A stretch of DNA of 64,000 nt from an uncultured Verrucomicrobiae bacterium (GCA_963718565.1 OY970364.1:576001-640000), one strand, 5' to 3'. Positions 4,113 to 37,314 are shown, counted from the first letter of the stretch. Notes: generated from the letters alone by a model not told the origin. Numbers and translations: made by a program.

Positions 4113-4985
4113 ATGAAATTCAAATGTATACCGAAAGCAACTCAAAAGTTGGCTTTTGGCTGCGTTAGCTATGCAGTAAATTTTTTGTCTTCACTCGCGC
4201 CTTGTGCTTGCACAATGGCCGCTCGCTCCAGACAAAAAATTTACGCAGCTGCCTTGCCAAAATTCCAACTTTTGAATTACTTCCGGTATATCCTACCATC
4301 GATGCTGGTGATCATTTTTATTCCTCTTTTTGCTCAAGATGCACAGCAAACTGTGAAAACGAAACCAACTCCTACCTCTATAGAATATCTTGCAAAGGAC
4401 TATTCATATCTTTATGGAATGCCAGGTTTTACCGATGCGTTGTTAAAAATGCATTTTCAACTCTATCAAGGATACGTGAAGAATACGAATCTCTTACTTA
4501 GCCGTTTCAAGGAACTCGAATTGCAAGATCGCGATCAGACGTATGATTATGGCGCTTTAAAACGTCGATTAGGATGGGAATGGGATGGAATGCGATTGCA
4601 TGAGTTCTATTTTGAAAATCTCGGTGGACATGAACCGTTAGATAAGTCTGCTGCGTTATTTCAACGCATTGTCAAGGATTTTGGTTCTTACGATGCATGG
4701 AAAAAGAGTTTCACCTCTACAGGGCTCATTCGCGGAATTGGATGGGTAATTTTATATCGCGATCCTCAGTCGGGGCGTCTCTTCAATACGTGGATTAACG
4801 AACATGACCTCGGACACCTTTCCGGAGGAAGCCCATTGCTAGTTATGGATGTCTTTGAACATGCCTACATTACTCAATATGGCTTGGATCGGGGAAAGTA
4901 TATAAGCGCCTTCTTTGATAATATCGATTGGGCAAAAGTCGCTAAGCGTTATAATGACGCGACAGGCTGTGATACAATGCATTAG
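4113..4985 (+). CDS. Fe/Mn superoxide dismutase with signal peptide, carrying an in-frame palindromic insertion
   Basis: HFQLYQGYV, LHEFYF, DVFEHAY metal-ligand motifs; AGGAGG RBS before ATG 4113. Confidence 0.88.
   Translation: MKFKCIPKATQKLAFGCVSYAVNFLSSLAPCACTMAARSRQKIYAAALPKFQLLNYFRYILPSMLVIIFIPLFAQDAQQTVKTKPTPTSIEYLAKDYSYLYGMPGFTDALLKMHFQLYQGYVKNTNLLLSRFKELELQDRDQTYDYGALKRRLGWEWDGMRLHEFYFENLGGHEPLDKSAALFQRIVKDFGSYDAWKKSFTSTGLIRGIGWVILYRDPQSGRLFNTWINEHDLGHLSGGSPLLVMDVFEHAYITQYGLDRGKYISAFFDNIDWAKVAKRYNDATGCDTMH
4127..4290. repeat. Palindromic element family A (ERIC-like), in frame in the SOD gene
   Basis: TATACCGAAAGCAACTCAAAAGTTGG...CCAACTTTTGAATTACTTCCGGTATA; related copy at 18079-18252. 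Confidence 0.9.
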
Positions 4986-5024
4986 ACAGCTTGCGTAGCC
5001 TGTTTCACCTGAAAAAATCGATGA

Positions 5025-33955: not shown

Positions 33956-35875
33956 ATGCTGCGATTTGCATTTCTCCTTCTTTTCCCGTTCCATTGCTTA
34001 CTGGGTTCAATCATTGAAAATGAAAAAGACCTGTATTCTGAAGTTCCAACGCCAACCTGGGTGGCGCCAGTATATTTTTCAGACTCGTTTGAAACACAAG
34101 ATGCCCATCTTCAATTCTTACTGCTGGATTGCCAAGAGTTGTTGCCGGAACAGACTAATTATTACCATTTTGCAATAAAAACCTTTACATCGAGTGGTGT
34201 TGAGGCCATTGCTCAATTGGAAATTGATTTTGAACCTACCTTTCAAAAACTTGCTGTCCATGAGGTTAGAGTCAGGCGCGATGGGGTCTGGATTGACAAA
34301 AGAAACTCAAGACATGAACTTCTCCAGCGCGAAGAGGGCCTAGAAGACAATTTAGTGAGTGGGGTGCTGACCCTGGTTTATTTCCTCGAAGACATTCGTC
34401 CAGGAGATATTCTCGAGTATACTTATTCTACAATTGGAACAAATCCTCTTTTCAGTTCCCACTTCTTCAATAAAATGCCTCTGCAAACAAGTATTCCTAT
34501 CGAAAAGATTTCCTATCGATTACTGACTCGTCCTGAACATGTCTTTAGAATCCAAAAGTTCAATACAAAGATTGAACCCATGGTGACAGATTTGACGGAA
34601 TCCTTGCGAGAATGGCGTTGGGAGGTAGTCAACCCCGAAATTTCCCCTGAAGAGGAATCTCAGCCAGAATGGTATCAACCTGAAGCCTTTGTGGAAGTGA
34701 GCGACTATCAGAGCTGGGGAGAGGTCGCCGAAGAAATCATTCCGCTTTTTGCGCTTCCTGAAGATTTTGATTCCAATATCCCTGAGGAGATGGCCAACAT
34801 GGTTGCCTCTTGGAAAGGCACTCAATCTGAGCGTGCTCTAGCAGCTTTGCGCTTTGTCCAGGATGAGGTGAGATATCTGGGTTTTGAAGAGGGCATCATG
34901 GGTTTCAAGCCTCATGATCCTCGGACGATTTTCCAACGCCGCTTTGGAGATTGCAAAGATAAGACGTTTTTATTGCACTCTTTGCTTCGTTTGATGGGCA
35001 TTGCGTCGACACCTGTTGTGGTAGACACACGTGAAGGAAAATTAATCTCTGAAATGCTGCCTAGCCCGAATGCTTTTAACCACATCATCTTGCAAATCAC
35101 AATCGATGAAACCCATTATTGGGCCGATTCGACGATCTCTTTGCAAGGGGGCTCTTTAGAAGGGAACTTTTTTCCCAATTACTATTGGGGGTTACCCTTA
35201 GCCCAAGGAACAAACTCGCTGCTCGCCCTCCCAGAATATACTCTGGAAAGGCCCACAGAAATCGAGACGCGAGTTAAAATGATCTTTGAAGATTTAGCTG
35301 AGTTGTCGACCGTTTGGACAGCGTTTGGATCGAAAGCGGACGGTTATCGCCAATATGTACACCATGTGGGTCTTGCGCATCTTTCAGAAGAATCCCTAAA
35401 TGTGCTCCAGAGAAAGCATGGGAACGCGTCGATTCATTTTCCTATGGCTGTGATGGACGACCGTGAGAATAATATCTTCACTCTCACTGAGTCTTATCTT
35501 TTTCCGTTACGTAAACGTGGAAATAAACCCATTTTGAACGTCTCCTCCATTGTCATTCGGCACTTTCTCACGAGCGATTTCAACCCCAATCGCATTGCAC
35601 CCTATTCTTTAACTTATCCGCTTTGGGCCAAAGAACATATTCATATTGAAAGTCCATTTTCCAATTGGAAAAGCGAAGAAGAAGAAAACAACTATATGAG
35701 TAACTCTGTGCACTATCATTTTCTTTCGAAAATAGAAAATCAAAGTGCCGATTTTTATTACGAGCTTAAGCATCTCAAAGATTCTATTCCTGCAGAAGAT
35801 TTGCAAGAATATTGGGAAGCTGCACAGGAAATTGAATTAAACGGCTCTTTTGATTTCAAAATTAGTAGCAAATGA
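33956..35875 (+). CDS. Secreted DUF3857/transglutaminase-like domain protein
   Basis: Signal peptide; DIRPGDILEYTY, FVQDEVRY, GDCKDK, FNHII. Confidence 0.82.
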   Translation: MLRFAFLLLFPFHCLLGSIIENEKDLYSEVPTPTWVAPVYFSDSFETQDAHLQFLLLDCQELLPEQTNYYHFAIKTFTSSGVEAIAQLEIDFEPTFQKLAVHEVRVRRDGVWIDKRNSRHELLQREEGLEDNLVSGVLTLVYFLEDIRPGDILEYTYSTIGTNPLFSSHFFNKMPLQTSIPIEKISYRLLTRPEHVFRIQKFNTKIEPMVTDLTESLREWRWEVVNPEISPEEESQPEWYQPEAFVEVSDYQSWGEVAEEIIPLFALPEDFDSNIPEEMANMVASWKGTQSERALAALRFVQDEVRYLGFEEGIMGFKPHDPRTIFQRRFGDCKDKTFLLHSLLRLMGIASTPVVVDTREGKLISEMLPSPNAFNHIILQITIDETHYWADSTISLQGGSLEGNFFPNYYWGLPLAQGTNSLLALPEYTLERPTEIETRVKMIFEDLAELSTVWTAFGSKADGYRQYVHHVGLAHLSEESLNVLQRKHGNASIHFPMAVMDDRENNIFTLTESYLFPLRKRGNKPILNVSSIVIRHFLTSDFNPNRIAPYSLTYPLWAKEHIHIESPFSNWKSEEEENNYMSNSVHYHFLSKIENQSADFYYELKHLKDSIPAEDLQEYWEAAQEIELNGSFDFKISSK

Positions 35876-37314
35876 GACGACTAATTGCCTTATTTCTTTT
35901 TCCATTGTTTTGCAGTTTGCCGCTTTTCGGAGACCCGTTATACTGCGCGCAGGAAGGTTTTGTGAATTTGGACCCAGCGAGGCAAAGCACAATCGAAGCT
36001 TGCGGTCCGAATGGCGAAGCCATAGTGAAAACTATGACTGAGGAAGAGGATCGATTGGGCAAAGCCGCAGCCAGTCCAAAGTCACAAAACCTGACGGAGC
36101 GCGGTATAAGTCTTGCCGAGCTGATCGATATTGCACTGAAAAACAATCCAGAAACTGCAAAAGCCTGGTCGAATGTGAAACGCGCCCAGGCTGCTGTCGG
36201 TCTGGCTGGAAGTGCCCAGTATCCGCAGTTAAATGCGCAGGGGACGTTGACTCATGCGCGAGAAGTTAAATTCCCCAATGGACCCAACACGGTATTTACA
36301 AACTATGGCGGCGAACTCAATTTAAACTATCTTTTGTTTGACTTTGGCGAGACACGCGCTGCTGTACGTGCGACAAAAGAAGCCCTTCAGTCGGCAAAAT
36401 GGTGGGCGGATTTTGCGATGCAGAAGGTCATTTCGGATGTCTCATCGACCTATTACGAATATTTAAATGCTTCGGAGCTTTTGGCAACGCAAGAAAGCTC
36501 GCTACAAGATGCCAGCATGATTTTAAATTCTGCTGATGAACTTTGCCACGCTGGTTTGCGGGCAGCTAACGATGTGATCACAGCAAAAGCTGCTGTTGCT
36601 GAAATTCATATGCGTCTTGCTCAGCAAACAGCGAACAGTATCATCGCTCATGGGAAACTGCTCACAGCAATGGGACTTCCCATTGAGACATCATTACAGG
36701 TCCAAACGCAGCCCGAAGGCGTGCAAAATCCGCTGTTCAAAGAGTCTATCCCTTTATTGATCAAGTCTGCAGAGGAGCATCGAGCGGATTTAATGGCCAA
36801 ACAAGCCTCGCTTTCCGAAATGAATGCGCGTGTGGATAGGGCCAAACGCGCGCCCCTGCCGAAATTGCGCGCGCTTGGGCAAGCGGGATGGCTCGAGTAT
36901 GGAAGGCATCGCGGAAATGGCTATAATTATAGTGCCGGCTTGGCTCTGGACATTCCACTGTTTAAAGGCTTTGAATATTCGTATCAGAAAAGGTTAGCTT
37001 TGGCTGATGCCGAAATGAGTGCAGCAGAGCTAAAAGAGCTACACAATGCCATTGCTTTTGAGGTGTTGAGCTACAGCGAGACCCTCAAGGCTGCCGAAAT
37101 TGCCATGCACTACAGCGAAGAGTTTTTCAACGAAGCCTTTAAATCTTATGACGGCTCGATCCAAAGTTATAAGGCGGGATTGATCAATATTTTTGATTTG
37201 TTGCAATCGCAACGATTTTTGTCGGATGCACGCGATAAAAAGGCCTTAGCGAGAACAGAGTGGCTTGTTTCACTAGCGCAATTGGCATTTGCCACAGGGA
37301 GTCTTTCACAATGA
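35872..37314 (+). CDS. TolC-family outer membrane protein with 56-aa in-frame insertion
   Basis: SLAELIDIALKNNP, LFDFG, LDIPLF, YKAG...DLL; upstream of MFP and RND genes. Confidence 0.9.
   Translation: MRRLIALFLFPLFCSLPLFGDPLYCAQEGFVNLDPARQSTIEACGPNGEAIVKTMTEEEDRLGKAAASPKSQNLTERGISLAELIDIALKNNPETAKAWSNVKRAQAAVGLAGSAQYPQLNAQGTLTHAREVKFPNGPNTVFTNYGGELNLNYLLFDFGETRAAVRATKEALQSAKWWADFAMQKVISDVSSTYYEYLNASELLATQESSLQDASMILNSADELCHAGLRAANDVITAKAAVAEIHMRLAQQTANSIIAHGKLLTAMGLPIETSLQVQTQPEGVQNPLFKESIPLLIKSAEEHRADLMAKQASLSEMNARVDRAKRAPLPKLRALGQAGWLEYGRHRGNGYNYSAGLALDIPLFKGFEYSYQKRLALADAEMSAAELKELHNAIAFEVLSYSETLKAAEIAMHYSEEFFNEAFKSYDGSIQSYKAGLINIFDLLQSQRFLSDARDKKALARTEWLVSLAQLAFATGSLSQ
35939..36108. repeat. 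Family C element, complete, in frame in TolC
   Basis: TATACTGCGCGC..AGGTTTTGTGAATTTGGAC...GTCCAAAGTCACAAAACCT..GAGCGCGGTATA. Confidence 0.9.

Follow-up and report, generated by a model that had tools for sequence, protein, structure and literature searches.

The question raised by this locus is how three genes of one bacterium came to hold long palindromes close to their 5' ends, and whether these palindromes are read as part of the proteins. The locus is a stretch of 64,000 nt (GCA_963718565.1 OY970364.1:576001-640000), hereafter the window, in which positions are counted from the first letter. The genome from which it was taken (G000) is a single contig of 2,284,058 bp, probably metagenomic. 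Its relatives carry the names Rhabdochlamydia or Simkaniaceae, or are mislabelled 'Verrucomicrobia' metagenome-assembled genomes, and the host of the three palindromes is an environmental chlamydia. Environmental chlamydiae are obligate intracellular bacteria, like Rickettsia. The three genes encode a Fe/Mn superoxide dismutase (SOD), a SET-domain protein and a TolC-type outer-membrane efflux protein, and the palindromes in them were named elements A, B and C, respectively. Overall, it is highly probable that hairpin-forming transposable elements of the miniature inverted-repeat kind (MITEs) transposed in frame into the 5' parts of these three functional genes and are read through as extra peptides.

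All three elements lie on the + strand, as do their host genes. The SOD gene (4113..4985; Pfam Sod_Fe_C and Sod_Fe_N) is preceded by an AGGAGG ribosome-binding site and carries element A at 4127..4290, a TA-type element of the form TATAC...GTATA measuring 164 nt with both TA dinucleotides. With one TA counted as the duplication, the element adds 162 nt net, or 54 codons, after codon 5, and the open reading frame (ORF) translates without a stop into 290 residues, of which residues 6-59 are the insert peptide. Element B (14573..14829, 257 nt) lies in the SET-domain gene (14497..15432; Pfam SET); it starts with GAGGGAATTGCA, ends with the reverse complement of it and is flanked by a target-site duplication of TTTA (left 14569..14572, right 14830-14833). 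Together with one TTTA it adds 261 nt or 87 codons after codon 25 of an ORF that translates stop-free into 311 residues, residues 26-112 being the insert. Element C (35939..36108) is again of the TATAC...GTATA type, 170 nt with both TA, and adds 168 nt or 56 codons after codon 23 of the TolC-type gene (35872..37314; Pfam OEP), whose ORF translates stop-free into 480 residues with the insert at residues 24-79. Folding of the elements gave one long hairpin each, with energies of -67 kcal/mol for A (z = -9.0), -145 kcal/mol for B (z = -13.9) and -74 kcal/mol for C (z = -8.0), and none of 200 shuffled sequences was as stable in any of the three cases. The translations agreed with an earlier reading of the window made from the sequence alone (the sequence-only reading) in the coordinates, the net lengths of 162, 261 and 168 nt and the stop-free frames of the three elements. 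As a side observation, a member of another hairpin repeat family, F15 (approximately 175 nt, five copies in G000), was located directly 3' of the SOD stop codon at window positions 4990-5165.

Comparison with same-genus orthologs showed that the sites are empty elsewhere. For the SET-domain protein, the alignment (A1) had a gap of 87 columns exactly at element B in all 13 orthologs. Stop-to-stop reading of the orthologous ORFs, in which a short N-terminal part led directly into the post-insert sequence, showed the site empty in 11 of 11 SOD loci (element A), 13 of 13 SET loci and 10 of 10 TolC loci, with conserved residues on either side, and an alignment of ten of the 11 SOD orthologs (A2; one with an ambiguous start was omitted) showed a clean gap at the element, after the residues MK. 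The ten TolC orthologs were all without element C and matched only from residue 72-79 on, the closest of them running from ...FGDPL directly into SLAELID. The clean gaps that the sequence-only reading had expected were therefore found as insert-free orthologs for all three genes. In addition, in silico removal of each element with one duplication restored an ortholog-like junction in SOD, SET and TolC, for example ...FEAVF|KIGYL and ...FGDPL|SLAELID. On these comparisons the three inserts are derived insertions, since every same-genus ortholog examined is without them. It is extremely unlikely that the segments are instead ancestral and were lost in the relatives, or that they are assembly artefacts, because each of them is a dispersed repeat with target-site duplications, no ortholog carries it and the ortholog junction is obtained on its removal. 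In a public soil run, possibly the source sample, there were also contig ends that matched the flanks of other C copies, such as the copy in the DUF455 gene, which argues against an artefact. The contigs of four soil-metagenome runs were 151-460 nt long at a depth of 2-4, and none of them bridged the TolC insertion junction.

The anatomy of A, B and C is that of MITEs. Each pairs end to end in its single hairpin, and the termini are conserved across copies. Clustering of the short repeats of G000 was followed by a census of 152 full-length copies from 12 subfamilies with clear ends; the censused elements were 71-291 nt long and without a transposase gene. The TA-duplicating subfamilies were A (4 full copies, with TA at both ends in 4/4), C (10 full copies), C-long (6 copies), C-mini (4 copies), F1 (29 copies), F3 (17 copies), F17 (4 copies) and F27 (3 copies), and TA was found at both ends in eight of nine C copies. 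The subfamilies with B ends and a 4-bp duplication were B-full (20 full-length copies), B-short (29 copies), B-mini (12 copies) and F8 (14 copies). By manual reading, the 4-bp duplications of family B vary in sequence and are perfect in 15 of the 20 full-length copies. The identity of copies to the family consensus reached 99-100%. Nested in-frame insertions of B inside an A-type element were also present, N-terminally in a PBP4-like (D-Ala-D-Ala carboxypeptidase) gene (G000:C1:1734964-1736772) and in a collagen-like gene encoding a 1,219-residue collagen-repeat/BclA-like protein (2058198-2061857), and both ORFs are open. The inverted-repeat ends, target duplications, dispersed near-identical copies and nesting together assign A, B and C to the MITEs; with the empty orthologous sites, they also bear out the proposal of the sequence-only reading that these are mobile hairpins inserted in frame in the manner of Rickettsia palindromic elements (RPEs).

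The same reading had listed intergenic copies of each family within the window, and this held in part. Families B and C do have further copies there, all of them truncated: partial C copies at 13720..13795 (one arm, 76 nt, intergenic) and 32339..32437 (99 nt), and partial B copies at 33769..33860 (one arm, 92 nt) and 54406..54513 (one arm, 108 nt, intergenic). No further copy of A was present in the window; the intergenic element at 18079..18252 is a full copy of F1, TA-type and 174 nt long with a net length of 172 nt that is not a multiple of 3, and has only the ends of approximately 40 nt in common with A.

Whether such elements are read by ribosomes was approached through the tabulation of coding location against length modulo 3 that the sequence-only reading had suggested. 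A copy was counted as genic when a stop-free frame spanned the element and extended at least 100 codons outside it. Among 80 copies with a net length divisible by 3, 35 had a spanning ORF and 45 did not, compared to 6 with and 66 without among the 72 copies of other lengths (152 copies; Fisher p = 5.2e-7). The six out-of-frame genic exceptions were all situated at ORF ends, with no more than 24 codons downstream or no more than 7 upstream. The subfamilies showed the same link. Full-length B copies of 257 nt, to which the SET copy belongs, were genic in 8/8 cases and the other full-length B copies in 1/12, and the shared indel state of the eight 257-nt copies indicates a subfamily by descent. 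For F1, copies with a net length of 171 nt were genic in five of seven cases and those of 172 nt in two of 21, both of them close to the ORF's 3' end; the single net-168 copy was not genic. Divisibility was not sufficient where the frames were closed: for F3, F8 and F17, all six consensus frames contain stops and 0/35 copies were genic, despite a net length of 117 nt for F8. One genic B copy (G000:C1:1018889-1019145) has two compensating 1-nt indels, so that its peptide shifts frame in mid-element and then returns, and the ORF remains open. Overall, the copies found inside genes of G000 are the frame-keeping, stop-free ones, with exceptions only at ORF ends.

The simplest model for this pattern would be near-random insertion followed by loss of the genic copies that shift the frame or bring in a stop. 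Under it, A, B and C would have transposed into the 5' parts of the SOD, SET and TolC genes in this lineage, and would have persisted since the element with its target duplication is a multiple of 3 and entered a frame in which it has no stop. With the frame kept and no stop brought in, the gene stays open and the element would be read as an extra peptide of 54, 87 or 56 residues. Such insertion and loss works only if ribosomes read the inserts, and this is the main, indirect argument that the inserts are probably translated as extra peptide segments. The earlier claim that the elements add new peptide segments is thus backed genome-wide by the link between divisibility and genic location, and the peptides themselves are inferred from it.

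Pfam families were recognised in 20 of 23 host ORFs, namely the SOD, SET and TolC genes and 17 of 20 further spanning ORFs. The further hosts include a chorismate-binding enzyme, an oligopeptide-type ABC ATPase, an FtsX permease, a DUF455 protein, an MFS transporter, a CAAX protease, MutY, an RluA-type pseudouridine synthase, TsaB, PBP4, YbeY and a family-92 glycosyltransferase (GT92). When ten further hosts were searched in five genus genomes, nine had insert-free orthologs in all five, and the MFS host of an F1 copy had an ortholog in none of the five at E ≤ 1e-15. The two halves of the chorismate-binding enzyme, MutY, FtsX, DUF455 and CAAX proteins matched adjoining stretches of one open frame in the relatives. 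Alignment with MAFFT placed blocks present only in G000 in the ABC ATPase (87 aa), DUF455 (56 aa), the CAAX protease (57 aa) and YbeY (58 aa), and on the remaining hosts scattered part of the insert over chance matches. In a relative (L106 of G005), an F1-like element appears to be present at about the same site upstream of ybeY with a stop between them, and a shared or a recurrent insertion is possible there.

Position within the protein would be the other part of tolerance, with inserts accepted in or near N-terminal leaders or in surface loops. Among the in-frame genic copies, 22 of 35 lie in the first 30 codons and 21 of 35 in the first tenth of the ORF. The TolC insert is situated three residues past the likely signal-peptide cleavage site, in a stretch of variable length among orthologs. 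The SET structure predicted by AlphaFold2 with A1 had a predicted local distance difference test score of 27-30 for residues 27-112 and of 70-84 for the flanks, so that the insert is left unmodelled; this is weak evidence, as A1 is empty there. The earlier proposal that the elements are retained where an export or secretion leader tolerates them therefore fits SOD, SET, TolC and the 22 early copies, but does not cover the copies found mid-gene in cytoplasmic enzymes (the chorismate-binding enzyme, MutY, the RluA-type synthase and the ABC ATPase).

Several observations weigh against read-through. The hairpins of -67 to -145 kcal/mol begin 15-75 nt past the start codon and could hinder translation. 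A look-up of sequencing runs turned up no RNA run. In SOD, the insert splits the ancestral signal peptide, with MKFK on one side and the hydrophobic core on the other, and 54 residues between the charged N-terminus and that core may break export; the insert also holds an internal ATG (residue 35) as a possible alternative start. A TTG is located just 3' of the SET insert. More generally, 12 of the 35 in-frame copies have no more than 10 upstream codons, so that the element may lie in the leader with the true start downstream, and the YbeY copy is ambiguous in this respect. Finally, the copies are young, at their approximately 94-100% identity, and an inactivated host gene would show no decay yet. 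All of these would be accommodated if the insertions were real but unread in working proteins, either through a downstream restart or through recent gene inactivation that has left no decay so far. Such an explanation is unlikely, for the following reasons. The length modulo 3 should not matter to an unread insert, yet it separates 35/80 from 6/72 copies in ORFs; nor should all eight 257-nt B copies be genic or one genic copy hold a compensated pair of indels. A downstream start cannot bypass the mid-gene copies in conserved enzymes. In the window itself, the 25 SET residues before the insert are conserved across the 13 orthologs, with M1, L3, V5, F21 and E22 invariant. The TolC signal peptide is upstream of the insert and would be lost with a downstream start, and its ATG and the stop codon of the upstream ORF overlap (ATGA); as this coupled start is needed, a functional TolC protein must be read through the insert. 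Translation across the inserts in working proteins was therefore retained as the preferred reading.

MITEs derived from IS630/Tc1-mariner elements form a TA-duplicating class. G000 contains an insertion sequence of the IS630 family (Pfam DDE_3 and HTH_33) with TA duplications and TA|TAC...GTA|TA ends, for which 14 megablast matches of at least 80% of its length were found, the query copy included. A, C, F1 and F3 likewise duplicate TA and have ends like those of this resident element, which on terminal similarity is a candidate for mobilising the elements of TA type; A and C would then be moved in trans by its transposase. Only TA and approximately 3-7 terminal bases are common to it and A or C, which counts against the proposal, and the derivation or mobilisation of A and C from it accordingly stays a candidate. 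Family B differs from such MITEs in its 4-bp duplication and unrelated ends. No autonomous partner was found for it: B-type ends located 0.5-4 kb apart in G000 showed no recurrent spacing, and none of the 16 large repeat groups of the genome has B ends as its own termini. The word 'active' in the sequence-only reading was thus not upheld, with no matching transposase for B and only the candidate IS630-family one for A and C.

The elements might also have been co-opted, the hairpin serving as a regulator of translation or stability at the messenger RNA level, or the peptide as a new leader or membrane segment under selection. One frame of B encodes a hydrophobic stretch of approximately 20 residues, and all eight copies read in that frame lie in the first 40 codons; together with the excess of in-frame copies in the first 30 codons, this is what co-option would lead one to see. 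It is nevertheless very unlikely, since the pattern needs no more than survivorship to explain it, all orthologs work without an insert, and the copies are young and specific to the lineage, with the B peptide occurring in one (G000) of the 120 genomes of the order that were scored; one genome could not be scored. A specific retention of the hydrophobic B frame before signal peptides was tried and rejected, as its link to a downstream hydrophobic segment was not significant (5/8 against 3/10, Fisher p = 0.34; Mann-Whitney p = 0.075).

Selection at the level of the element, acting alongside insertion and loss, was also considered. ORFs of at least 150 codons make up 83% of G000, and in a genome with approximately that ORF share selection could favour coding-compatible lengths. 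For the derivative subfamilies (261 to 186 to 75 nt, and 168 to 225 nt), the length differences are mostly multiples of 3. That selection at the element level has made the MITE families of the genus coding-compatible, with a net length that is a multiple of 3 and several frames free of stops, is a tentative proposal that is possible rather than probable.

The families are not confined to this genome. Family A gave at least 78 scored matches in the same-genus genome G013, compared to the 4 full copies in G000, and five of these matches are located within open frames of 300 aa or more (several of 326-435 aa). It was also found in several other genomes of the genus, and in a diverged form in another family of the order. 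Peptides of the C type occurred inside long open frames of G013, G001, G003 and G005. In a protein database of 5.8 billion sequences, the C peptide was present in 12 proteins, six from G000 and six from other contigs, the latter including a SpoU methylase, a P-type ATPase and an FAD oxidoreductase. The B insert had no covering match at E ≤ 1e-30 in the genus genomes other than G000. This distribution of A, B and C indicates that the families expand lineage by lineage.

In literature searches for MITEs or palindromic elements in chlamydiae, no description of such elements was found, in line with the sequence-only reading, which knew of no equivalent there. The papers on the Waddlia genome and on Rhabdochlamydiaceae refer to repeats as well as to insertion sequences, and the terms palindrom- and MITE occur in neither text. 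The excerpts available of two reviews, PMC10969869 and PMC3184786, describe MITE ORFs fused in frame to host ORFs for RPEs, which are the extreme case, and for ERIC/RU, the BOX of pneumococci, a MITE of Coxiella and MITEs of Anabaena. The likeness of the present families to RPEs as described in those excerpts lies in having several palindromic families of approximately 100-250 nt, many copies of which sit in frame in housekeeping genes unrelated to one another, in a bacterium with an obligate intracellular life, and in adding a peptide while the gene stays unbroken (Ogata et al. 2000, via PMC10969869, PMC3184786). The differences are that the host here belongs to another phylum, the chlamydial lineage, and that A, B and C, when compared by description, show clear terminal inverted repeats and target duplications with the look of classical MITEs. 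The bias to the first 30 codons and the divisible-by-3 pattern of subfamilies were measured here and do not come from the RPE literature.

The enterobacterial TA-duplicating repeats with TATAC..GTATA ends are likewise fused in frame to host ORFs (Delihas 2007, PMC2759123, in the portion available). According to that portion, ERIC/RU-1, RU-2 and RU-3 resemble the present elements in their TA ends and TA duplication, stable stem-loop and open frames fused to host ORFs. The RU-1 termini TATAC...GTATA are also those of A and C, and not of B, while RU-1 measures 127 nt as against 162-168 nt net for A and C (164 and 170 nt with both TA) (PMC2759123, same portion). An 11-nt internal motif was common to RU-1 and A at a similar offset, as judged by eye only (PMC2759123, same portion). 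A blastn search of A and F1 against 5,426 E. coli genomes returned only 22-nt chance matches (E = 2) or none, and no match of at least 80% of the query.

Other repeats were recorded in the window and its genome. Self-comparison of G000 showed that 19.2% of bases were repeated once or more and 12.7% three times or more, and a repeat content of 19% of bases is unusually high among chlamydiae. The large repeats formed 16 clusters of insertion sequences plus non-mobile repeats such as duplicated WD40-repeat genes, and they included the IS630-family element recognised by Pfam and, by eye, IS3-, IS66- and IS4/IS5-like insertion sequences and a TnpB-like ORF. Further hairpin families of G000 were outside the census, one of them 130 nt long with approximately 58 copies and ends like those of an IS66-like element; in the window, this 130-nt family, with GTACGTCC-type ends, had three intergenic copies (6069-6198, 30345-30474 and 54033-54162). 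Four paralogous ORFs at 41446-47498 on the - strand are built of WD40-blade-like repeats of approximately 120 nt (40 residues), and similar genes are present elsewhere in G000. A duplication of approximately 390 nt that includes an ORF start (28440-28830 and 31941-32337) lies 3.5 kb apart at 80-88% identity, and a 154-nt inverted pair (31744-31897 and 45650-45803), 98% complementary, is separated by 13.7 kb. No Rfam family was matched within the window.

In conclusion, the description of A, B, C and their relatives as new MITE families that behave like RPEs in a chlamydial lineage, with 35 or more copies in frame in a single 2.28-Mb genome, is essentially right. It extends in-frame selfish DNA in protein genes, best known from Rickettsia, to environmental chlamydiae. 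As the transposon anatomy is visible here and a candidate IS630-family transposase is present in the same genome, the mechanism, which is unclear for RPEs, becomes testable. The link between subfamily length modulo 3 and genic location is in addition a natural experiment on the extent and the sites of insertion that proteins can tolerate. For annotation, the finding is a warning that inserts of this kind leave N-termini inflated, domains split in profile searches and short-read assemblies of these genomes broken. If element-level selection were true, the elements could colonise the approximately 83% of the genome that is ORF, and they would be actively remodelling export leaders and surface loops as a source of new peptide segments, one frame of B giving a hydrophobic, signal-peptide-like segment that recurs at protein N-termini.

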